DNA from: Candidatus Auribacterota bacterium
GTDB lineage: Bacteria > Auribacterota > UBA6266
Assembly: GCA_023136205.1 (NCBI GenBank)
Contig: JAGLRQ010000058.1
Span: 1 to 21,115 of the forward strand
Reading direction: 5' to 3'
Length of the DNA: 21,115 nucleotides
Shown in pieces: positions 7,500 to 20,945 of the stretch. The notes below the pieces were generated by a model. The model did no database searches. It was given only the letters and a program-made list of their open reading frames with translations, and was not told the DNA's origin. The first letter of the stretch is position 1; every line of letters starts with the position of its first letter. The translations under genes and the position numbers were made by a program.

Positions 7500-8996
7500 A
7501 TGTCTAATTTTGCTTATTGCAATAGCTGTAGACAAACTGTGCCTGCTGAATATGTTATACGCGGCAGCAATGTGTACCTTGCCAAGAAATGTCCGAAGTG
7601 TGGAATGAATGAGACCTTGATTTCAAGTGATGTGGACGCGTATAAGAAAAAATTTGATTTTATGGGCGATGTGGCTTATGAGAGCTGTGGGTTAAATTGC
7701 CTGGAGTGTGAACATAAGGTTCCGAACATCGCGTTTGTGGAGCTTACGAACAGATGTAATATGAACTGTCCAATCTGTATTACCAATGTTCCGTCAATGG
7801 GATTTGAATTTGAGCCGGACATGGAATATTTTAAGCTTATTTTTGAAGACCTTTCTAAATTAGATCCCAAACCCTCCATTCAGCTCTTTGGGGGAGAACC
7901 TACTGTGAGAGAAGATCTTTTTGATATTATCAGGCTTGCTAAATCTTACGGCCTTTCGGTAAGAGTGGTTACAAACGGCCTGAAGCTTGCCGATAAGAAG
8001 TACTGTGAAAAGCTGATAGAAGAAGGAGTCTCAATTCTTATATCGTTTGACGGGTTTAACAAAAAAATGTATGAAATGTTCAGAGGAATGCCTGAGGCGT
8101 TGGATCTTAAATTGAAAGCTCTTGAAAATCTCGCGCGGAGAAAAAGCGGCAAAGTTATTTTAATGACCGTGGCTTCAAAGGAGCAGGACAGCGAAGATTT
8201 GAAGAAATTGTTTGATTACTGTGTAAAAAATAAAAAGATTACAAGAGGTATTTTTATTATGCCGTTGGCGCATATGTGGTCGCCTGAAAGGCTGGACTAT
8301 AATCCTGAAAGGACTACTCCCGAAGATGTAGAGCATATGGTTGACAACGCGGTGGGAGGCGGCCTTGAATTTGTTCCCCTGGGTTCTCTTGACACAAAGG
8401 TTTTTAATAAGGTCCTTAATTTGAAAGATATGCCTTTTGTCGGTGTGCATCCTAACTGTGAGAGTATAACGGTTCTCGTTTCGGACGGGGAAAGGTTATT
8501 GCCTGTGTCGAAATTCCTGAAAAAAGGTTTATTTGGCCTTATAAACGATTTAAGGAATGTAGGGAAAGATATTTCAGGGCAGAAAGAGGTAGGGTTTTTA
8601 TTCAGGATTAAGGTTTACACGGCCCTTATTAAAATTTTGTTCTGTAATTTTGATTTCGGGGCAGCGGTTGGCCAGAAGGGAGTTAAAGCATTTTTCAAAT
8701 GGATAAAAATAGCCGGCAGGTTAATCTCAGGAACGAAGCTTAAGGATGTAATTAGAGCAGAGACCAGAATGAAAGGGGCTCTTCAGGTGATGGTGCTTCC
8801 GTTTGAGGATTATGACACAGCAGAAGCTGTCCGGCTGAAAATGTGCACTTCCTGTTTTGTTTACCCTGAAGATAGGAATGGAAACGTTAAGTATATTCCT
8901 GTTTGCGCGTGGGAAAAGAACAAAAAGATTGCAATGAAAAAAGTTGCCGAGTTGTTTAATAAGCCGGGTTTTAATAAAGGATTGTCCAGGAAATAA
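7500..8996 (+). CDS. Radical SAM enzyme with an N-terminal Cys4 ribbon and auxiliary Cys clusters (Tes/GDGT-MAS/MJ0619-like architecture), paralog 1
   Basis: N-terminal CNSC...CPKC. Extra CGLNCLEC. Radical SAM CNMNCPIC (CxxxCxxC). GGEPT motif. C-terminal CTSC...C. SD AAGGAGA. The radical SAM call is firm; the Tes-family assignment is from memory of the architecture. Confidence 0.8.
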   Translation: MSNFAYCNSCRQTVPAEYVIRGSNVYLAKKCPKCGMNETLISSDVDAYKKKFDFMGDVAYESCGLNCLECEHKVPNIAFVELTNRCNMNCPICITNVPSMGFEFEPDMEYFKLIFEDLSKLDPKPSIQLFGGEPTVREDLFDIIRLAKSYGLSVRVVTNGLKLADKKYCEKLIEEGVSILISFDGFNKKMYEMFRGMPEALDLKLKALENLARRKSGKVILMTVASKEQDSEDLKKLFDYCVKNKKITRGIFIMPLAHMWSPERLDYNPERTTPEDVEHMVDNAVGGGLEFVPLGSLDTKVFNKVLNLKDMPFVGVHPNCESITVLVSDGERLLPVSKFLKKGLFGLINDLRNVGKDISGQKEVGFLFRIKVYTALIKILFCNFDFGAAVGQKGVKAFFKWIKIAGRLISGTKLKDVIRAETRMKGALQVMVLPFEDYDTAEAVRLKMCTSCFVYPEDRNGNVKYIPVCAWEKNKKIAMKKVAELFNKPGFNKGLSRK

Positions 8997-8997
8997 A

Positions 8998-10518
8998 ATG
9001 TGGCAGAAGAAATTCAAGAGCGTATGTCCTGTTTGCGACCGCCCCGTTGACGGATTATTTTATGAGGAAAACAACCAGGTTTTCCTAAAGAAAACCTGTC
9101 CTGAACACGGAGAAGTCAGGGACCTTGCTTCATCAGATGCTGAACTTTTTTCCGGAAAGATGGACCTTGTCCCCGAAGATTATTCTGAAAAATGCAGTCT
9201 GGAAAAATGTGGTTCGGGGATATTCGCCTGCCAGGACCATTTCGCCAGAAAATCTCCAATAACATTTATAGAGGTTACTACCCGGTGTAACATGAGCTGT
9301 CCCGTATGTTATATAGACGCAGGTACAAAAGGAAGGGATATTCCGCTTGAAGATATAAAAAAAATAATTTCAGAAATCAAAAAGCATGATCCTGGAACCC
9401 ATCTGGTTCTTATCGGGGGAGAACCAACAATTCATAAAGATTTCTTTAAAATACTTGAAGCTGTCCGGGAAGCCGGCCTTATAAAAAGGTGTTATCTTGC
9501 GACTAACGGCATAACACTTTCCAGTGAGGAATTTTGCAAAAAGGTGTACGACGCGGGAATAAGATGGTATTACCTGGCGTTTGACAGTGTGGACAAAGAA
9601 ATGTGTAAGCAGGTAAGGGGAAGTTATAGGTCGTATGAGGCATCCAGGAAGACTATTGAAAATTTAAAGAAATTTAGCCGCGCGAAAATTGTGCTTTCCG
9701 TTACAGTGGTTAAAGGGGTAAACGATAAAGGCCTCCCGGCTGTTCTTGATTTCGCGGTAAGAAACAAAGATGTTGTTAAAAGAATTTCTATTTCCGCGGA
9801 AGTCTTTTGCGGGAGACAGACATCATCAGAAGATTTGCTTAAAAAGAGAATAACATCTGAATGTATAGAGAGTATATTAAGAAGAACTCTTGGTAATGGC
9901 GCGGCGACTATGTCACTGGCGCTTTACGGCACAATCCTTAAACCGCTCAATCTTGCCGGACTTCTTCCGAAGAGAACGGGAATTTACACTATGCCGCATC
10001 CGTTATGCGGAAACATTGGTTTTTTGTTCCGGGCCGATGACGGCTCTTATTTTTCGGTAATAGGCCTCGCGATTAAAAATTCCGCGGCTGATTTATATAA
10101 GTACGGTAAAAAGGTTAAGGATTTTTCGGTTAGGATGGAGAAAAGAAAGAAAATATTGCGCGCAAAACTTTTTGGCAATATCCTCTGGAAGCTTATAGCT
10201 TTTTGTTATTATGTTCCGGTATATTTCGGGATGATTCTTACTTTCATTAAACCTTCATTTGTTTTTAGAGCAGTTATGGCCTTCCCAAAATCGATTTTTA
10301 CCGGGAAAAAGGTAAGTGAATGTCTGCTTGGCAAAGACAGGGTAGAGATACACTATCTGGTCAGCTGTGATAAGTATAACTTTGTCTGGGAGAGGATGCC
10401 TTATTGCGCTACACACCATTATAGAATAGATGCCGGCACAAAAAAAGTCACAAAAATGTGCGGTTGTTATGTTTTTCCCTTCCGAAGTTATGCTGATTCA
10501 TGTAATACAATGGGATAG
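8998..10518 (+). CDS. Radical SAM enzyme, paralog 2 of the same family, with a hydrophobic C-terminal segment
   Basis: Start taken at ATG 8998, one nt after the paralog-1 stop (TAA-A-ATG). N-terminal CPVC...CPEHG. CNMSCPVC. GGEPT. C-terminal C...CGC. Hydrophobic stretch ILWKLIAFCYYVPVYFGMILTFI. The track start at 8944 overlaps the upstream gene and is unlikely. Confidence 0.8.
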   Translation: MWQKKFKSVCPVCDRPVDGLFYEENNQVFLKKTCPEHGEVRDLASSDAELFSGKMDLVPEDYSEKCSLEKCGSGIFACQDHFARKSPITFIEVTTRCNMSCPVCYIDAGTKGRDIPLEDIKKIISEIKKHDPGTHLVLIGGEPTIHKDFFKILEAVREAGLIKRCYLATNGITLSSEEFCKKVYDAGIRWYYLAFDSVDKEMCKQVRGSYRSYEASRKTIENLKKFSRAKIVLSVTVVKGVNDKGLPAVLDFAVRNKDVVKRISISAEVFCGRQTSSEDLLKKRITSECIESILRRTLGNGAATMSLALYGTILKPLNLAGLLPKRTGIYTMPHPLCGNIGFLFRADDGSYFSVIGLAIKNSAADLYKYGKKVKDFSVRMEKRKKILRAKLFGNILWKLIAFCYYVPVYFGMILTFIKPSFVFRAVMAFPKSIFTGKKVSECLLGKDRVEIHYLVSCDKYNFVWERMPYCATHHYRIDAGTKKVTKMCGCYVFPFRSYADSCNTMG

Positions 10519-12984: not shown

Positions 12985-13848
12985 ATGCCTAAGTGGATTT
13001 ATGAAACATTATATCCAGATTTAAAGCAGGGCTTTAAGGTAAAAAAAGTTCTGTATAAGTCCAGGACTGAATTTCAGGACATGGAACTTGTGGAAACTTC
13101 CCGCTTTGGAAGGGTGCTTGTTCTGGATGGGGTGGTTCAGACCACGGAAAAAGATGAGTTTATCTATCATGAAATGCTTACACATGTTCCGCTTCTGACG
13201 CACGGAAACCCTAAAAAAATTCTTCTTATAGGGGCTGGAGACGGAGGAATTTTAAGGGAAACGTTAAAGCATCCGGTAGATGAAGTAGTGATGGTTGAGA
13301 TTGACAGGGCAGTAGTGGATTTTAGTAAAAAATATTTAAGGCCAATATGTAAAAATGCCTTTTCGGATAAGCGGCTGAAACTTGTAATTGATGACGGCGC
13401 GAAATTTGTAAAAAAAACAGATGAGAAATTTGATGTTGTAATAATAGATTCTACTGATCCGGTTGGTCCGGCGAAGTGCCTGTTTACCCTGGGGTTTTTT
13501 AAGGGGGTCTCGAGGATACTTCTAACTAAAGGTATTATGGCAAGACAAACAGGTTCTCCCTGGCTCCAATCCGGCGAGTTCCGTAACTCCTGCAGGAAAA
13601 GTGAAACCGCGTTTAAGTATTATGAGCCGTATATGATGGCTACCCCGACATATTATGGAGGATTTTTTAGCCTAATAATTGCTTCTGACGGTATAAATCT
13701 TAGCAGGGGCAAAACGGATTTTAATCGTATCGAAAAAAAGTATAAGAAACTTAAGCTAAATACAAAATATTATAACCCGGAAGTGCACTATGGGGCATTT
13801 TGCCTTCCGGGATATGTTAATGAAATAAGGAGGAAACGGAAGAAATGA
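12985..13848 (+). CDS. speE: Spermidine synthase (aminopropyltransferase)
   Basis: LVLDGVVQTTEKDEFIYHEML, LLIGAGDGGILRE, VEIDRAVV and VIIDSTDPVGPA. Confidence 0.9.
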   Translation: MPKWIYETLYPDLKQGFKVKKVLYKSRTEFQDMELVETSRFGRVLVLDGVVQTTEKDEFIYHEMLTHVPLLTHGNPKKILLIGAGDGGILRETLKHPVDEVVMVEIDRAVVDFSKKYLRPICKNAFSDKRLKLVIDDGAKFVKKTDEKFDVVIIDSTDPVGPAKCLFTLGFFKGVSRILLTKGIMARQTGSPWLQSGEFRNSCRKSETAFKYYEPYMMATPTYYGGFFSLIIASDGINLSRGKTDFNRIEKKYKKLKLNTKYYNPEVHYGAFCLPGYVNEIRRKRKK

Positions 13849-14246
13849 AAGAATTAACCAAAGATAAACGCTGTGAAGAAACAACCGCAAACAGATCCTT
13901 TGGCGTTGAAACAGTAATTGATCTTTATGGGTGTGACTCTCAGATAATACGCTCGGAAGCAAAGCTTAGAGAATATGTTGACAGATTATGCGAGCTGCTG
14001 AAGATGGTGAAATATGGTGATACCTTCACTCCGTATTTTGGTTTGAACAATGATCATACAGCCGGTTATTCCGTACTTCAATTTATTGAAACAAGTTCTA
14101 TTACAGGGCATTTTTCAGAAAATACCAATGCTGCCTACCTTAATATATTTTCATGCGGCGAATATGACGTTGAAAAAGCGGCAGAATTCACAAAAGATTT
14201 TTTTGGCGCGGAAAAAATAGTAAAAAGAGTTATTGACCGGAAGTGA
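13845..14246 (+). CDS. Divergent AdoMetDC-fold (SpeH/SpeD-like) pyruvoyl enzyme paralog, substrate unknown
   Basis: Same-length core as SpeH but altered: VIDLYGCD, FIETSSITGHFSE (versus MESHLTIHSWPE) and NIFSCG. Its ATG overlaps the speE stop (ATGA). Confidence 0.7.
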   Translation: MKELTKDKRCEETTANRSFGVETVIDLYGCDSQIIRSEAKLREYVDRLCELLKMVKYGDTFTPYFGLNNDHTAGYSVLQFIETSSITGHFSENTNAAYLNIFSCGEYDVEKAAEFTKDFFGAEKIVKRVIDRK

Positions 14247-14287
14247 TTGTTCTTTTTTGCGGGTTTAGCAGCCTGTTTAAACTTGAG

Positions 14288-14319
14288 CCCCGTCGGATTT
14301 TGTCCGTCGGGGTTTTTTT
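14288..14319 (+). terminator. Rho-independent terminator closing the 6.5-14.2 kb block
   Basis: CCCCGTCGG (14288-14296) pairs with CCGTCGGGG (14304-14312), with one T:T mismatch and a 7-nt loop. T7 follows at 14313-14319. Confidence 0.8.
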
Positions 14320-14490
14320 ATTCGGGTTAACCCAAAATTTCGCATTATCAAAACGCCTGCAGCCCCCACTTGTTGTTTTTCCCCTCGTGATATATTTTAA
14401 TCAAAGTTGAACCAATATTAACGTAGGCGGATATTCACCTTTGATTGTGATTGTAATTGTAAGTTGATATATGTGTTTTAAAGTTAAATG

Positions 14491-14519
14491 TTGACAGGGG
14501 GTGTTAAACGATGTACAAT
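14491..14519 (+). promoter_or_regulatory. Near-consensus sigma70 promoter for the HTH-KamA-ATP-grasp operon
   Basis: TTGACA (14491-14496), an exact 17-nt spacer and TACAAT (14514-14519). Confidence 0.7.
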
Positions 14520-14592: not shown

Positions 14593-14973
14593 ATGGGTGA
14601 GCATAAAGAGAAAGAATTAATGACAGAAAGGGAAGTCAGGGAAATGATCAGGATTTCCCGGACAACATTGTGGAAACTGCGGAAAAACGAAGGTTTTCCC
14701 TTTACCAAAGTTGGGCGCCAGTATAGATATTCCAAAAAAGAGATTCTGGAATGGATGAAGGAAAGAAAGGGAAAGAAGATTGAAGTTAAGGCCGCTAAGC
14801 CGCGCCAAAACGCGTTGGCGGACAAGCCACGCCAAAATGTACCGGCGGGCAAGCCTGATAACATAGATAAAAAGGAGATAAGTAAGGAAATAGCTAAGGG
14901 GCCTTCACAGTTGCAGGGCCAGGAAAAAGGCTCTGCAAAGGAACCCGAAGGAACAACAAATGAAAAAAAATGA
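14593..14973 (+). CDS. Excisionase/AlpA-type (HTH_17, MerR-superfamily) DNA-binding protein with a low-complexity Lys/Pro tail
   Basis: LMTEREVREMIRISRTTLWKLRKNEGFPFTKVGRQYRYSKKEILEWM is a classic excisionase-type wHTH. The tail has three degenerate 9-aa repeats (KPRQNALAD / KPRQNVPAG / KPDNIDKKE). The start could be ATG 14620 instead. Confidence 0.7.
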   Translation: MGEHKEKELMTEREVREMIRISRTTLWKLRKNEGFPFTKVGRQYRYSKKEILEWMKERKGKKIEVKAAKPRQNALADKPRQNVPAGKPDNIDKKEISKEIAKGPSQLQGQEKGSAKEPEGTTNEKK

Positions 14974-16087
14974 GGTGGAAAAAGAAGTAACTGTTGCCTG
15001 TGCCGGTTCGTACAAGAGCAAAAAAGCCAGATGGAATGATTGGAAATGGCAAATTAAAAACAGGATTAATACTTTAGAAGAGATAAGCAAATATGTACAT
15101 TTGACAAAAGAAGAGAAAAAGGGGCTTGTTCTTACCGAACGATTAGCATTCGCGATAACACCATATTTCCTCAGTTTAATTGATCCGTTTGACCCTAATT
15201 GTCCTATAAGAAAGCAATGTATACCTACATCTAATGAAGGTGTTGCTACAGAATTTGATTACAACGATCCGTGTGCCGAGGAGAAAGATAGTCCTGTTCC
15301 CGGGCTTGTTCACAGATACCCCGACAGGGTTTTACTTCTGGTTACGGATGAATGCGCGACTTATTGCCGTCACTGTACAAGAAGAAGAACCACAGGCCAC
15401 GCTAAACATGTAATGACTTCCAAAATGCTTGAGAAAGTAATTAAATATCTTACGGATAATCCCGCAATAAGAGATGTCATAGTTTCTGGAGGAGATCCCT
15501 TAACTCTGTCTGATGAAAAACTTGAAATGATACTATCCAGTTTGAAAAAAGTTCCGACCGTTGAGGTTATAAGGATAGGGACAAGGGTTCCGATATTTCT
15601 ACCTATGAGAATTAGCGAATCTCTGGTTACAATGCTTAAAAAATATAATCCTGTTTGGATGAGCATTCATATAAATCATTCAAAAGAGATTACTGCTGAT
15701 GTTAAGAAAGCACTTGCCAGGCTTGCGGATGCCGGTATCGTTACGGGCAGCCAGACGGTTTTGCTAAAAGGAATAAATGATACGTCTGAAGCGATGAAAA
15801 AGCTTTGCCTGGAGGTTATGAAAAATCGTGTAAGGCCTTATTATATATATCAGTGCGACCCTGCCATAGGAACCTCGCATTTCAGGGCTTCAATAGAGAA
15901 AGGGATTGACATTGTTAGTAAATTAAGGGGTTTTATTAGCGGTTACGCGGTGCCGACTTATGTGATTGATGCCCCCGGCGGTGGAGGTAAAATACCGATT
16001 TCCCCGAAGTATGTAGTAGAAAAACAGGGCAAAAAATGGACTCTTAAAAATTTCCGGGATAAGCATTATGAGTACATTGAAACCTGA
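14960..16087 (+). CDS. kamA: KamA-family radical SAM/PLP aminomutase (lysine 2,3-aminomutase-like)
   Basis: CATYCRHCTRRR (CxxxCxxC), HRYPDRVLLLVT, YIYQCDP and VIDAPGGGGK. These include the PLP lysine and both Asp residues that, as I recall, correspond to the lysine-binding D293/D330 of clostridial LAM. It overlaps the HTH gene by 14 nt. Confidence 0.85.
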   Translation: MKKNEVEKEVTVACAGSYKSKKARWNDWKWQIKNRINTLEEISKYVHLTKEEKKGLVLTERLAFAITPYFLSLIDPFDPNCPIRKQCIPTSNEGVATEFDYNDPCAEEKDSPVPGLVHRYPDRVLLLVTDECATYCRHCTRRRTTGHAKHVMTSKMLEKVIKYLTDNPAIRDVIVSGGDPLTLSDEKLEMILSSLKKVPTVEVIRIGTRVPIFLPMRISESLVTMLKKYNPVWMSIHINHSKEITADVKKALARLADAGIVTGSQTVLLKGINDTSEAMKKLCLEVMKNRVRPYYIYQCDPAIGTSHFRASIEKGIDIVSKLRGFISGYAVPTYVIDAPGGGGKIPISPKYVVEKQGKKWTLKNFRDKHYEYIET

Positions 16088-16139
16088 TTCTTTTCCACTG
16101 CAATTATTTAAAAACTGATTAATCAATTCAATAACTCGT

Positions 16140-17144
16140 ATGAAAATAGGCATAACATATAATCTCAAAGATGATTTTGCTCTTTTAACCGGCGGCGCGG
16201 AAGATGCCCTGGAAGAGTTTGACAGTGAAAAAACAGTTGATGCTATTGTTTTCGCTATGACAAAGCTTGGATTTGATACGGCAAAACTTGGCGGCGGTGA
16301 AAAGGTTATAAGCAGAATAAAAAAAGAAAAACCGTCACTTGTTTTTAATATAGCAGAAGGGATTAACGGGAGATCGAGGGAAGCTCAAATTCCGGCTCTC
16401 CTGGAATTGCTGCAAATTCCGCATACTCATTCGGATCCTCTCACGCTTGCTTTAACTCTTGATAAATCTATGACCAATCAGGTTGTCCGGGCAAATGGAA
16501 TTCGAACACCTGACTTTGTTATAGTTTCCAGGATTTCCGATTTACAGAAAAGCAAATTACCTTCTTTCCCGTTAATTGTAAAACCCGCGTGGGATGGATC
16601 CAGTAAGGGTATAAGGTTTTCTTCAAAGGTTGATACTTTTGAAGCTCTGGAAAAACAGGTTTTGTGGGTTTTGGGCCACTATCCTGATCAGCAGGTTATA
16701 ATTGAAAATTTTATTGTCGGCAAGGAAGTAACTGTTGGTATTGTGGGTAATTATCCTCCAAAAATTCTGGGGATGATGGAAATCGGCCATAAAAATGGCA
16801 ATAAGGAAGATTTTATTTATTCGCTCGAAGTAAAAAGGGATTATAAAAAGCTTGTAGAATATACCTGCCCTCCGAGACTTGCGGAGGAAACTGTAAAAGA
16901 GCTTGAAAAAATGGCTTTGGCAGCATATGAGTGCCTGCAGTGCAAAGATATTGCGAGAATGGATTTCAGAATTGACAGCAGAGGTTTCGCGTATTTTATA
17001 GAGGTAAATCCGCTCCCCGGACTTTCCCCCGGATACAGTGATTTGATTATAATGTCGAAGAAGTATGGGATAAAATACGAAAATATAATAGCCGGAATAC
17101 TTGATAACGCGATAAAAAGGTATAGATTGGGAGAAAAGAATTGA
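16140..17144 (+). CDS. D-Ala-D-Ala-ligase-like ATP-grasp ligase 1
   Basis: MKIGITYNLKDD..., PLIVKPAWDGSSKGI, ARMDFRIDSRGFAYFIEVNPLPGL. No obvious SD. Confidence 0.75.
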   Translation: MKIGITYNLKDDFALLTGGAEDALEEFDSEKTVDAIVFAMTKLGFDTAKLGGGEKVISRIKKEKPSLVFNIAEGINGRSREAQIPALLELLQIPHTHSDPLTLALTLDKSMTNQVVRANGIRTPDFVIVSRISDLQKSKLPSFPLIVKPAWDGSSKGIRFSSKVDTFEALEKQVLWVLGHYPDQQVIIENFIVGKEVTVGIVGNYPPKILGMMEIGHKNGNKEDFIYSLEVKRDYKKLVEYTCPPRLAEETVKELEKMALAAYECLQCKDIARMDFRIDSRGFAYFIEVNPLPGLSPGYSDLIIMSKKYGIKYENIIAGILDNAIKRYRLGEKN

Positions 17145-18223
17145 AAGTCGCGCTTCTATACAATGACCCTGATCTCAAGGCGGACCTGGAACCCGGGATA
17201 ACCGACAGGTATATTCATAACCATATAATAGCTATTGAAGAATCGTTGAAGGAAAAAAATCATGAAATAATCAAGCTGGATGTAAAGAATGATGTTCAAA
17301 GGCTAATTTGCGATATACAGACTGATAAACCGGATGTAGTTGTTAATTTGTGTGAAAGTGTGTTTGGCCGGGCTGAATTTGAAATGAACGTGGTTGCTCT
17401 TCTCGAACTTTTAAAAGTCCCGTATACCGGTGCTTCTCCTATTGCGCTTGGTATTTGCCTGAACAAATATAATCACAGGCTGTTTCTTAAAGACATGAAA
17501 ATAAAATGTCCCGGTGCTGTAACAGTGAAAGGGGTACAGGATTTTAAATCTCTGGGAAAGTTAAAATTTCCTGTTATTGTAAAGCCTCTTTATGAGGACG
17601 GAAGTGCCGGCATATCGGAAAGAAATATCTTTTCGAGTCCACAGGAAGCTATGGAAAATTTTGAAAGGCTTTTGGGTGTTTTTTCAGAAGGCCTTCTTGC
17701 TGAGGAATATATTGACGGCAGGGAATTCAACTGTTTTTTAGTGAAAACAAAAAATGGCGTAAAATCTTTTCCGGTGTCAGAAATAAAATTTAGTTTTCCC
17801 GACAAGAGAAAATATAAGATAATCTCTTATGAAGCCAAGTGGAATCCTGAAAGCATAGAATATAAATCCACAATGCCTGTTTGTCCGGCCGAACTTTCAA
17901 AATCCCTTCTTAAAAAGATTCAGGATGTTTGCGTGAAGATTTTTAATGTTATGGTAAAAAAAGGATACGCGAGGGTTGATTTGAGAATGGATGAAAGAAA
18001 TAATCTTTATATTATTGATGTTAACCCAAATCCTGATATCAGCCCCGATGCGGGTGCGGTGAGACAAATGAAAGCCGGAGGATGGACTCATACAGATTTT
18101 GTTGAACAGATACTTGAAGAAGGTATTGAATATATGAAAAACCCGATTTTCAAACAGGTGTCTGCTGATAGTGTACACACTTCTGAATCCGGCAAGGATC
18201 TAAAAGTTACTGCCGCTGTTTAA
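17141..18223 (+). CDS. D-Ala-D-Ala-ligase-like ATP-grasp ligase 2
   Basis: TTG start overlapping the upstream stop (TTGA), with SD GGGAGAAAAG. MKVALLYNDPD..., PVIVKPLYEDGSAGI, ARVDLRMDERNNLYIIDVNPNPDI. Confidence 0.75.
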   Translation: MKVALLYNDPDLKADLEPGITDRYIHNHIIAIEESLKEKNHEIIKLDVKNDVQRLICDIQTDKPDVVVNLCESVFGRAEFEMNVVALLELLKVPYTGASPIALGICLNKYNHRLFLKDMKIKCPGAVTVKGVQDFKSLGKLKFPVIVKPLYEDGSAGISERNIFSSPQEAMENFERLLGVFSEGLLAEEYIDGREFNCFLVKTKNGVKSFPVSEIKFSFPDKRKYKIISYEAKWNPESIEYKSTMPVCPAELSKSLLKKIQDVCVKIFNVMVKKGYARVDLRMDERNNLYIIDVNPNPDISPDAGAVRQMKAGGWTHTDFVEQILEEGIEYMKNPIFKQVSADSVHTSESGKDLKVTAAV

Positions 18224-18228
18224 AGAGA

Positions 18229-19578
18229 TTAATACTTATACCTGCTTCCACCGATGAATTCCCTGATGAGAGAGTCAGATGGGATACATGAAAAATCCTC
18301 AATGCTTGAAAACGATTCAAGCAGCTGCTTTATCCTGGTTGCGCGCAGGTAGGCATCCTGTTTTGTAACGTTGTTTTTTAGTGTATTAATAAAGCCTTTT
18401 AAATTACGCGAGAGAAGATTTTTCATAACAGGAAGTTCATAGGGCATAGCGCTGTTAATAACATAGTCGGCAGTATTTACAAAAGGGATTATGTGGCGAA
18501 GTTCACTGCTTCTTACATAATGCCAGTGTTCTATGGTCATTTGAGGGTTGTAACTCCTGTATTTTGAGTCCCTGACCATTCTTCTCAGGAGCCTCAGGTC
18601 TGTCCAGCGGATAAATTCGTTGTTTTTGTCTTTCATCTGGAGGAGTGTTTCAATATAAAGGTTAAACTTATTGCTGCTGTCTATTGAACCGGTCATTTTT
18701 TTATGAAGGCCGTGCAGACTGTCTATGAGAATAATTTCTCCCGGGTTTAATTTCAGGGGTGAAGTTTTCTTTTCTCTTCTTCCGGTTTTAAAGTTATATG
18801 ACGGAACCGCAACCTCTTTCCCTGCTATAAGTTGATGGATATGCTTGTTTATCAACTCGAGATCAAGGGCTTCCGGAGTTTCAAAATCATAGTCGCCGTG
18901 TTCATCTTTCGGGTGCAATTTTAAATCATAGAAGTAATTATCGACATTCAGTGTAACAAAGTTTTTTTTGTTTTGTTTAAGTATCTCGCTTGTTTTTATA
19001 GTAGTCGTTGTTTTTCCGGATGATGAAGGCCCTGCTACGATAACGACCTTAAGATTATCTTCCATTTCAAGCATCATTTTTGCCGCTGTTTCAATCTCTT
19101 CCTGATATTTGTTTTCGGAGATTTCAACAAGCTGTGAGAATTTATCCTGTTTTATAATCTCATTTACCTTGCTTATTCTCTCGACGTTGTTATCAATGGC
19201 CCAATTGAGTATGTGATAAATCCGGTGATAAGGAACTTTATCAAACGGAACAACTGTCCGCTTTCCTTTTTCGAGCCGTTCCTTGATCCGGTCATATCTG
19301 TAGAGTATAAAGGCCTTTGCTGTTTTTGAATGGCCGCTTTCAATGAGTACTTCTTCCGTTATGTCTTGTATATCTTCCACGTTAGGAGGGTTGGCAGGGG
19401 AAAAACATTTATTGAGGATGTCTATAACCTTATTAGAAAGTTTTTCCGCGGTTTTTTTATTTCTGCCCCCCGTGGCAATCGCGGCTTTATAAATCGCGTT
19501 GAGTATTCTTTCCTGCGCGAAGGGAACAACAATACCTGAACGTTTGATAACTTTTGTAATTTTATTATCTTTATACAT
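18229..19578 (-). CDS. ATP-cone domain fused to a uridine kinase/phosphoribulokinase-family P-loop kinase
   Basis: N-terminal ATP-cone (KVIKRSGIVVPFAQERILNAIYKA...AKAFILYR). Walker A VAGPSSSGKTTTT. Confidence 0.75.
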   Translation of the reverse strand: MYKDNKITKVIKRSGIVVPFAQERILNAIYKAAIATGGRNKKTAEKLSNKVIDILNKCFSPANPPNVEDIQDITEEVLIESGHSKTAKAFILYRYDRIKERLEKGKRTVVPFDKVPYHRIYHILNWAIDNNVERISKVNEIIKQDKFSQLVEISENKYQEEIETAAKMMLEMEDNLKVVIVAGPSSSGKTTTTIKTSEILKQNKKNFVTLNVDNYFYDLKLHPKDEHGDYDFETPEALDLELINKHIHQLIAGKEVAVPSYNFKTGRREKKTSPLKLNPGEIILIDSLHGLHKKMTGSIDSSNKFNLYIETLLQMKDKNNEFIRWTDLRLLRRMVRDSKYRSYNPQMTIEHWHYVRSSELRHIIPFVNTADYVINSAMPYELPVMKNLLSRNLKGFINTLKNNVTKQDAYLRATRIKQLLESFSSIEDFSCIPSDSLIREFIGGSRYKY

Positions 19579-19667: not shown

Positions 19668-20168
19668 CTATTCACTGCTTCTTATATCCTTACGGTATAT
19701 TATTTTATCATCATTTTTATCATAGAATGATTTTATACATGCTTCTTTGTGGTATCCGCATGAAGTATAAAATTTTCTGGCGGAAAGATAATTTGTTTTA
19801 GAAGATGTTTCTATGAATATTGAACGGCCTTTGTGCTTCTTTATATCTTTTTCCATGCGTTCCATCAATTTTTTTCCGCTGCCGATTTTTCTGAATTTCT
19901 TATGAGTTGCTATCCAGTAAAGGTCATAACAGCCTTTTGTTAGATCTATCCAGCCGTAGATTATGAACCCGGTGATATTTTTGCCGGATTCGGCTATGTA
20001 TATTATGTAATCACTCTGGTTTTTATTTTTTAGCGCGTAGTCGATTAGTTCAAGAGCGCATACCTTTTCTTCATTTTTAAAATTTTGGATTCCGGTTATA
20101 AGAGATTTTAATCCGGGGAAATCAGATTTTCCCAGTTTTCTTATTTTAATTGAGATTAAGTTTTTCAT
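19668..20168 (-). CDS. GNAT-family N-acetyltransferase
   Basis: Acetyl-CoA motif A region WIATHKKFRKIGSGKKLMERM. C-terminal ARKFYTSCGY. Confidence 0.8.
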   Translation of the reverse strand: MKNLISIKIRKLGKSDFPGLKSLITGIQNFKNEEKVCALELIDYALKNKNQSDYIIYIAESGKNITGFIIYGWIDLTKGCYDLYWIATHKKFRKIGSGKKLMERMEKDIKKHKGRSIFIETSSKTNYLSARKFYTSCGYHKEACIKSFYDKNDDKIIYRKDIRSSE

Positions 20169-20276: not shown

Positions 20277-20945
20277 TCAATTTAAAGCATTGATAAGTTT
20301 TTTACCTTCAGGTGTCGGTGAAACTTTTTTGTCTATAACGATTTCTATCGCGGTTAATGGTTTTCCATAGAGTGTTTTGTTATCTTTTTTATCCTGTGCT
20401 ATAACTGCTCCATCAAGCGCGACTCCTATAAAAGCGCCTTTTGTCCTTGAATAACTTAGTATCGGTGTTTGCAGCAGTATATCGGTGGAGATTTCAGCGT
20501 TTCTCCCGACAGGGCCCGCGGCAACAGCAGCATCTACTCCGAGGGTTACATTGTGCCTGAGCAGCATGTCGAGGCCTTTTCTGGATGTTGTGACAAGGAC
20601 AATATCTGATGCCTGTGCCCCGATCTGGAATCCGAAGCTTATTCCTCCAATTCCAACAAACGCGGGAGCTGACCATTCTCCGGTTTCTTTGTCATGTGAA
20701 AGAACAACGCCGGTTCCGCCTCTTCCTCCCAAGATAAATCCGCCCTTAATAGTGTTAGGGAATATAGCTATGCCGGTACATTGATCCAGGAGATCTGCGG
20801 GGATACCGTCTTCAGGCATGTCGAGCAGTTCTTGAATAACAGTGGCGCAGTTTTCCAGTTTCTTATTAACTCTTCCCTCCGGGTCTGCCGAAAAGCAGGC
20901 TGTGGAGAGGGAGAAAATAAGAAACAGTGATAAAAGTAACTTCAT
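20277..20945 (-). CDS. SYLF (Ysc84/DUF500) lipid-binding domain lipoprotein
   Basis: Signal/lipobox-like MKLLLSLFLIFSLSTAC. GIAIFPNTIKGGFILGGRGGTGVVL...GGISFGFQIGAQASDIVLV is typical of the SYLF domain. Confidence 0.8.
   Translation of the reverse strand: MKLLLSLFLIFSLSTACFSADPEGRVNKKLENCATVIQELLDMPEDGIPADLLDQCTGIAIFPNTIKGGFILGGRGGTGVVLSHDKETGEWSAPAFVGIGGISFGFQIGAQASDIVLVTTSRKGLDMLLRHNVTLGVDAAVAAGPVGRNAEISTDILLQTPILSYSRTKGAFIGVALDGAVIAQDKKDNKTLYGKPLTAIEIVIDKKVSPTPEGKKLINALN

Follow-up and report, generated by a model that had tools for sequence, protein, structure and literature searches.

The 21,115-nucleotide contig JAGLRQ010000058.1 of Candidatus Auribacterota bacterium (assembly GCA_023136205.1; the whole contig is called the window here) carries a gene cassette composed of a KamA-type lysine 2,3-aminomutase, two ATP-grasp ligases with the predicted fold of D-alanine:D-alanine ligase (Ddl), named AG1 and AG2, and a small GNAT acetyltransferase. 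This cassette is a real, conserved and uncharacterised pathway built of known enzyme types. We assign a probability of about one half to the reading that its product is a small N-acetylated di- or tri-amide of beta-lysine located in the cytoplasm. The window belongs to a metagenome-assembled genome (MAG) of 1.76 Mb with 92.65% completeness. The genes in question, with lengths in amino acids (aa), are the following:

14593..14973, + strand: HTH_17/excisionase-type DNA-binding protein, 126 aa, putative local regulator (Pfam HTH_17)
14960..16087, + strand: KamA-type lysine 2,3-aminomutase, 375 aa, short form (Radical_SAM and LAM_C; TIGR00238)
16140..17144, + strand: AG1, Ddl-fold ATP-grasp ligase, 334 aa (Dala_Dala_lig_C)
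17141..18223, + strand: AG2, more diverged Ddl-fold ATP-grasp ligase, 360 aa (Dala_Dala_lig_C)
18229..19578, - strand: ATP-cone plus uridine-kinase/PRK-like P-loop kinase, 449 aa (Pfam ATP-cone, PRK)
19668..20168, - strand: small RimI-like GNAT acetyltransferase, 166 aa (Acetyltransf_7/1/10), ortholog of cassette GNATs

A preliminary description of this DNA had proposed that the first four genes form an operon leading, through two ATP-dependent amide ligations, to a beta-lysine-containing product. All four plus-strand open reading frames (ORFs) lie where they had been placed and translate without stops, and the gene-level reading stands; the unit is bigger than claimed, as the GNAT gene had been missed. 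Gene set, linkage and active-site residues agree with two ligations on or with beta-lysine, to which acetylation has to be added, while the product itself and the action of the ligases on beta-lysine are what we infer from them. New here are the link to Desulfovibrio and to the crystal structure 2R7H, the active-site comparison and the displaced GNAT.

Conservation was assessed at two levels. Within the phylum, 41 genomes were sampled, 25 of them AG1-positive, and in 25 of these 25 genomes KamA adjoins AG1. Cross-phylum counts were taken on the best 80 of at least 587 AG1 relatives from species-representative genomes, spanning about 15 phylum- or class-level lineages; any gene within 8 kb of AG1 was scored as a partner, and many of these loci end at contig edges. 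Among the 80 loci, KamA accompanies AG1 in 68, AG2 in 59 and the GNAT in 29. Of the two ligases, AG1 is the better conserved. The cluster on which the preliminary description had been built is thus conserved well beyond its phylum. Unbiased clustering of all neighbouring genes in 92 loci returned no further universal partner, only lineage-specific regulators.

Gene order differs between lineages. In 20 same-phylum loci the genes are arranged as AG1-(AG2)-GNAT-KamA or KamA-AG1-AG2. Three layouts can be distinguished: layout A, KamA-AG1-AG2-GNAT, with genes that often overlap; layout B, found in Syntrophaceae, in which the genes for PAS kinase, sigma-54 regulator and response regulator stand, in this order, between AG1 and KamA-AG2; and layout C, in which KamA-AG1 precedes a protein of 329 aa whose ATP-grasp signals are no more than faint. 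Hosts include, within the Thermodesulfobacteriota, Syntrophaceae, Syntrophorhabdus and Deferrimicrobiaceae, joined by Omnitrophota, Planctomycetota, Dadabacteria, Clostridia, Dehalococcoidia, Rokubacteria, Krumholzibacteriia, Gemmatimonadota, Actinomycetota, Ignavibacteriales and Margulisiibacteriota. In high-GC loci, KamA and AG1 seemed to be fused into proteins of about 730 aa; these fusions were rejected as artefacts of ORF extension. The protein of about 329 aa occupies the place of AG2 in 18 loci from Omnitrophota and Planctomycetia (L053:9013-10002; also L045 and L046), matches ATP-grasp models at E = 0.03-0.12 and may be a very diverged second ligase. On the 3' side of its gene lies a TreT-type trehalose synthase gene, directly in L046 and after one 70-aa ORF in L045.

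A colinear operon with overlapping genes is present in a Deltaproteobacteria MAG, in Desulfovibrio mangrovi and in contigs with a 2R7H-type GNAT. The window proteins share 48% (KamA), 38-39% (AG1), 25-28% (AG2) and 36-37% (GNAT) identity with those of the D. mangrovi and 2R7H-type loci. D. mangrovi is cultured and its genome is complete, so that the cassette is open to study in a culturable sulfate reducer. Its operon is followed by a 585-aa fusion of a GNAT with a histone-deacetylase family domain (L150:9629-11386), which hints at reversible acetylation of the product in some lineages. As a general cassette partner such a GNAT-deacetylase (Hist_deacetyl) was rejected, being found in 1 of 100 loci and not in the window genome.

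KamA is present in a single copy in the genome. With the clostridial enzyme 2A5H it shares 54.6% identity (448 bits). It scores 336 bits on the KamA family model TIGR00238 (cut-off 199) but stays below the cut-offs of the equivalog models, with 476 of 525 bits for AblA, 431 of 650 for glutamate 2,3-aminomutase, 392 of 600 for arginine 2,3-aminomutase and 242 of 369 for EpmB. The motifs quoted earlier, CATYCRHCTRRR, YQCDP and DAPGGGGK, were all recovered. Residues were compared in 79 correctly extracted cassette KamAs using 2A5H numbering: equivalents of C125, C129 and C132 (CxxxCxxC), R134, D293, D330 and K337, the lysine that binds pyridoxal 5'-phosphate (PLP), are kept in the window KamA and in 79/79 cassette proteins. 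Retention of D293, D330 and K337 agrees with the previous argument for a basic amino acid substrate. C268 and the C-terminal cysteine triad, which we take to be the zinc site of 2A5H, are missing. KamA represents a short and distinct subgroup whose substrate, judged by its residues, is most probably lysine.

Two established routes for beta-lysine found no support. KamA is not EpmB, as its score on that model indicates, and EpmA was not detected in the genome: the sole match to its model (GenX, TIGR00462) reaches 250 bits against a cut-off of 287 and is a 483-aa frame that probably encodes lysyl-tRNA synthetase. The AblB model TIGR03827 has no match at E <= 0.01 in this 92.65%-complete genome. 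Because neither EpmA nor AblB was found, EF-P (elongation factor P) beta-lysylation and the AblAB pathway were rejected. The beta-lysine 5,6-aminomutase domain of lysine fermentation (PF09043) gave zero matches in the genome, and likewise zero in 14 control genomes. A related proposal is that KamA and the GNAT make N-epsilon-acetyl-beta-lysine the way AblA and AblB do, with the ATP-grasp genes being unrelated and merely syntenic. That AblA is the best-scoring equivalog for KamA and that a GNAT belongs to the conserved set speak for such a route. However, the GNAT is not of the AblB type and is the least constant member of the set, whereas the link between KamA and AG1, whose genes often overlap, is the tightest of all; mere synteny would not persist over about 15 lineages and three gene orders. 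We regard this explanation as very improbable.

The two ligases were confirmed as ATP-grasp proteins by their motifs, PLIVKPAWDGSSKGI and FIEVNPLPGL in AG1 and PVIVKPLYEDGSAGI and IIDVNPNPDI in AG2, and their divergence from one another, noted previously, corresponds to 28% identity. Pfam Dala_Dala_lig_C is matched with 115.9 bits by AG1 and 86.2 bits by AG2. Both fall below the cut-off of every Ddl model, with 178 and 125 bits, respectively, on NF002378 (cut-off 243). An AlphaFold2 model of AG1 (mean predicted local distance difference test score, pLDDT, 90.4) has Ddl structures as its top PDB matches at template modelling (TM) scores of 0.76-0.85 and about 25% identity. For AG2, the predicted model likewise has a Ddl fold (pLDDT 85.0) with a disordered tail at 340-360. 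In E. coli DdlB numbering, the ATP/Mg-binding and catalytic residues K97, K144, E180, E187, K215, R255, D257, E270 and N272 are kept in both ligase families, position 270 being E or D in the AG2 family; both ligases should therefore be active. The D-alanine-binding set E15/S150/Y216/S281/L282 is not retained in either of them. Family-wide changes comprise R16E, H63E, E68R, Y216R, S281Y and L282G/S in AG1 and E15A/T, H63E, S150G, Y216W, G276D and L282G in AG2.

Phylogenetic placement agrees with this separation. A quick maximum-likelihood tree (IQ-TREE, with support from the Shimodaira-Hasegawa-like approximate likelihood ratio test) was read for clade membership and not for deep branching. A clade with 100% support unites E. 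coli DdlA and DdlB with the Ddl of this genome and one relative. Apart from it stand an AG1 clade (99%) and a clade of AG2 with further paralogs (99%). The genuine Ddl is encoded on another contig, scores 341 bits against the cut-off of 243 and directly follows murB. As this murB-linked Ddl lies elsewhere and no mur/dcw context surrounds AG1 and AG2, a housekeeping Ddl role was rejected for both. On the RimK/LysX model TIGR00768 (cut-off 143 bits) AG2 scores 21 bits and AG1 gives no match. Both ligases are hence separate from the genuine Ddl clade, and their scores stay under the cut-offs of the Ddl and RimK models alike. Neither matches the PylC model TIGR03909 at E <= 10, and AG1 reaches only 19.8 bits on the Ngg model TIGR03103 (cut-off 569). 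Since these models do not fit, membership in PylC, RimK or Ngg was rejected. Eleven third ATP-grasp matches were tried as true Ddl candidates and most of them proved by the tree to be extra AG2-like paralogs. Such a third AG2-like paralog occurs in same-phylum genomes (L138-L144 and L147; L036:3412-4455) and makes up a separate clade (100% support). One family has it at a distance of 4-6 kb from the cassette, with TPR, B12-radical-SAM and PAS-kinase genes between them.

The pocket changes also bear on the idea that the ligases polymerise beta-lysine, either alone or in alternation with a second amino acid, into a cationic nitrogen store or surface polycation that might be likened to cyanophycin or to the beta-lysine chains of streptothricins, with the GNAT capping or detoxifying it. 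Both pockets have gained acidic residues fit for cationic substrates, and the cassette has two different ligases. Further, the GNAT is weakly similar to the putative streptothricin acetyltransferase 3PP9 (E = 1e-5), and sigma-54/NtrC-type regulators flank many cassettes. However, fold and nearest relatives point to dipeptide-forming Ddl and not to RimK or CphA, as the RimK scores above illustrate, and no conserved exporter or hydrolase was found among the neighbours in the 92 loci. A polymer therefore appears unlikely, and we continue to favor a small amide.

The window GNAT is the fourth conserved cassette member, displaced here to a position 1.4 kb downstream of AG2 on the opposite strand, where it forms a convergent unit with the ATP-cone/uridine-kinase-like gene. 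Its identity as a cassette member is evident from two comparisons. GNATs inside the 20 same-phylum clusters are 31-40% identical to ORF 19668-20168, and this ORF is the best match in the genome for 40 of 43 cassette GNATs of other genomes. Because the GNAT is a conserved member, acetylation belongs in the cassette chemistry. The protein is RimI-like but below the RimI cut-off (50.8 bits against 86.4). Its nearest solved structure is PDB 2R7H (83 bits), titled 'Putative D-alanine N-acetyltransferase of GNAT family'. Over the 137 residues matched, 2R7H is 100% identical to a protein whose gene comes directly after KamA-AG1-AG2, behind a sigma-54 activator gene. The structure probably derives from Desulfovibrio (Oleidesulfovibrio) alaskensis G20, for which transposon fitness data have been published. 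The name 'D-alanine N-acetyltransferase' is thus probably wrong and reflects the neighbouring Ddl-like genes and not an assayed activity.

The ATP-cone/PRK-like kinase gene is found in this position, flanked by AG2 and the GNAT, in all genomes of the Auribacterota family and only there. It shares the strand of the GNAT, on whose downstream side it lies, and the stop codons of kinase and AG2 are 5 nt apart. The kinase is no more than a candidate cassette member.

ATP-grasp enzymes such as RimK and LysX attach amino acids to macromolecules. By this precedent, and with a GNAT that resembles RimI, AG1 and AG2 could use a macromolecule as acceptor for beta-lysine or a different amino acid, be it the C-terminus or a side chain of a protein, a carrier protein, or a precursor of peptidoglycan or of the envelope; genes for an LpxL-like acyltransferase, a heptose epimerase and an OmpA-LysM protein lie upstream in the window. 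Outside the window's family, though, these envelope genes are not linked to the cassette, and no conserved gene for a small carrier protein or for cell-wall synthesis was found beside it in the 92 loci. The ligases are of the Ddl type and not the RimK/LysX type, and the cassette spans didermic and monodermic lineages whose envelopes differ. Modification of a macromolecule is quite unlikely on this evidence.

For the favored small-amide pathway, gene content, linkage and intact catalytic residues are direct observations, and the following sequence of reactions can be proposed. KamA, as a radical-SAM (S-adenosylmethionine)/PLP enzyme, would convert L-lysine to beta-lysine, as suggested by its 55% identity to the clostridial enzyme and its lysine-binding residues. 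AG1 and AG2 would each work as Ddl does, by turning a carboxylate into an acyl phosphate that reacts with an amine, so that two amide bonds would be formed on or with beta-lysine. Beta-lysine itself is the probable substrate of AG1: in the minimal two-gene forms this ligase is the one that remains with KamA, and in its first-substrate pocket it has gained the acidic residues R16E and H63E, which would suit a diamino acid. AG2, whose pocket is enlarged and different (E15A/T, S150G, Y216W, G276D), probably extends the AG1 product. The GNAT would acetylate a free amine, either on an intermediate or on the product. The resulting compound could serve as a compatible solute or a polyamine-like cation.

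A number of points weigh against this pathway or narrow it. The chemistry after KamA is deduced from gene linkage and active-site residues, and Ddl-type enzymes could equally use a macromolecular acceptor. The GNAT is found in 29 of the 80 loci only and not within 8 kb in the common Syntrophaceae layout, and acetylation is therefore perhaps optional. According to their record titles, many host genomes come from freshwater, groundwater, peat, soil and lakes, and an Rfam scan of the window and seven other cassette loci found one tRNA only and no Na+ or c-di-AMP riboswitch. Given these hosts and the lack of an Rfam element, a purely salt-induced osmolyte is not favored. The SpeD-SpeE-SpeD2 genes directly upstream of the cassette, parted from it by a conserved terminator and promoter, might suggest a link to polyamine synthesis. 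This link was rejected, as outside the window's family neither SpeD nor SpeE is found near the cassette; canonical SpeE occurs in 3 of the 41 phylum genomes and is unrelated to cassette presence. The adjacency is treated as local synteny confined to the window's family.

Two regulatory elements define the 5' boundary of the operon:

14287..14322, + strand: intrinsic-terminator-like hairpin and T-run, read from the sequence; ends upstream SpeD-SpeE-SpeD2; equivalent in four related genomes
14491..14519, + strand: sigma-70-type promoter TTGACA-17-TACAAT; 11/12 positions; in register in four family genomes

The promoter claimed in the preliminary description is present and is the top site of an 8-kb scan, although the match alone is not significant, since 20 promoter-like sites were found in these 8 kb against 20.8 expected by shuffling. 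Four other family genomes share the -35 and -10 boxes in register, the ATGGGTGA start and a conserved leader. The hairpin reads CCCCGTCGG-ATTTTGT-CCGTCGGGG followed by T7; it contains one stem mismatch and is for this reason absent from the automatic scan list. In the same four genomes an equivalent G-rich hairpin and T-run is located at the same place, 3' of the upstream gene. Conservation of promoter, hairpin with T-run and leader in register argues for an operon with its own promoter, insulated from SpeD-SpeE-SpeD2. Within the operon, the reported overlaps of 14 nt between the HTH gene and KamA (14960-14973) and of 4 nt between AG1 and AG2 (TTGA) were both reproduced. An AAGGA-like ribosome-binding site is found 7 nt 5' of the KamA ATG, and GGGAG, 7 nt 5' of the AG2 TTG start, is a plausible one for AG2.

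The first gene of the operon encodes a helix-turn-helix (HTH) protein that matches Pfam HTH_17 with 49.8 bits and TIGR01764 with 28.9 bits (cut-off 28.8) and ends in a low-complexity tail rich in Lys, Pro and Gln. An HTH_17 gene directly 5' of KamA is restricted to the window's Auribacterota family, with 56-58% identity there; in other lineages the same slot is taken by an HTH_3-cupin protein or a sigma-54 activator. The suggestion that this protein acts as local regulator fits with regulators filling the slot elsewhere, while the HTH_17 type itself is family-specific. To judge from its domain and position, it probably regulates the operon. Direct repeats, GATTGT GATTGT AATTGT AAGTTG, are found at 14440-14470 (+) in the window, just 5' of the -35 box. 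They could represent a candidate HTH_17 operator and are only partly conserved in the family's other genus.

Other window genes were noted in passing. SpeD2 (13845-14246, +) is a diverged SpeD paralog with 73 bits for AdoMet_dc and 33 bits on the S-adenosylmethionine decarboxylase equivalog model (cut-off 76). It is about 70% conserved and in either genus of the family always found directly 5' of HTH-KamA; SpeE is present at this place only in the window's genus. SpeD2 may be a pyruvoyl decarboxylase acting on a different substrate. Further upstream, 7500-8996 (+) and 8944-10518 (+) encode a tandem pair of radical-SAM proteins that have an HMPTM zinc ribbon. The NCBIfam model they match best is the archaeal tetraether lipid synthase Tes (177 and 201 bits; cut-off 450). 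The LpxL-like acyltransferase and the ADP-heptose 6-epimerase follow this pair, and together they may constitute a membrane-spanning-lipid or envelope-lipid module. A Ysc84/SYLF-domain protein is encoded near the cassette both in the window (20277-20945, -) and in the Deltaproteobacteria MAG (L043:1749-2450); the two share 41% identity, and their occurrence there is perhaps a coincidence.

Known fates of beta-lysine are N-acetyl-beta-lysine, EF-P modification, fermentation and antibiotics made by nonribosomal peptide synthetases. If our proposal is true, the cassette would add a fifth fate, hundreds of mostly uncultured anaerobe species would have in common a pathway dedicated to a beta-lysine compound, and the Ddl branch of the ATP-grasp ligases would gain two new substrate specificities. 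The chances seem evenly balanced that an undescribed class of small beta-lysine amides, acetylated di- or tri-amides with the role of a solute or polyamine-like cation, is a metabolite common among anaerobic bacteria from over 12 phyla; such a class would have been missed so far because nearly all hosts are uncultured. That the pathway is kept in a streamlined 1.76-Mb genome suggests a core physiological role. The question is testable, as the cassette is present in cultured D. mangrovi and a crystal structure of the GNAT family, 2R7H, has been deposited. In the open-access literature, no paper combining aminomutase, ATP-grasp and beta-lysine was found, and none that describes the cassette, also when looked for through Desulfovibrio or sigma-54.

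Several characterised systems resemble the cassette in part. With AblA/AblB, the N-epsilon-acetyl-beta-lysine system of methanogens, green sulfur bacteria and some Bacillus, it shares the combination of a lysine 2,3-aminomutase and a GNAT, and AblA is the model on which the window KamA scores best. It differs in that KamA remains below the AblA cut-off, that AblB has about 270 aa compared with the 166 aa of the RimI-like cassette GNAT, and that two ATP-grasp ligases are added, which are the most constant partners of the cassette. EpmB/EpmA is similar in relying on a KamA-family aminomutase that makes beta-lysine. The likeness to Ddl enzymes (DdlA/DdlB and the Van ligases) lies in the three-domain ATP-grasp fold and in the residues for ATP/Mg binding and acyl-phosphate catalysis, whereas AG1 and AG2 do not have the D-alanine-binding set, form separate clades and are found outside any mur/dcw context. 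Ngg combines a GNAT with an ATP-grasp domain and makes the osmolyte N-acetylglutaminylglutamine amide. The Ngg/AsnO system thereby parallels the cassette in using GNAT activity and ATP-grasp peptide-bond formation to arrive at a small N-acetylated peptide solute; the cassette has no AsnO-type amidotransferase, and its building block would be beta-lysine. In the PylB/PylC system, which serves pyrrolysine biosynthesis, a radical-SAM enzyme rearranges lysine to a non-proteinogenic diamino acid, which a Ddl-like ATP-grasp ligase then joins by an amide bond. PylB is not of the KamA type, the PylC model fails on AG1 and AG2, no PylD is present, and the cassette has two ligases and a GNAT; nevertheless, both systems share the logic of a lysine mutase coupled to a Ddl-like ligase.

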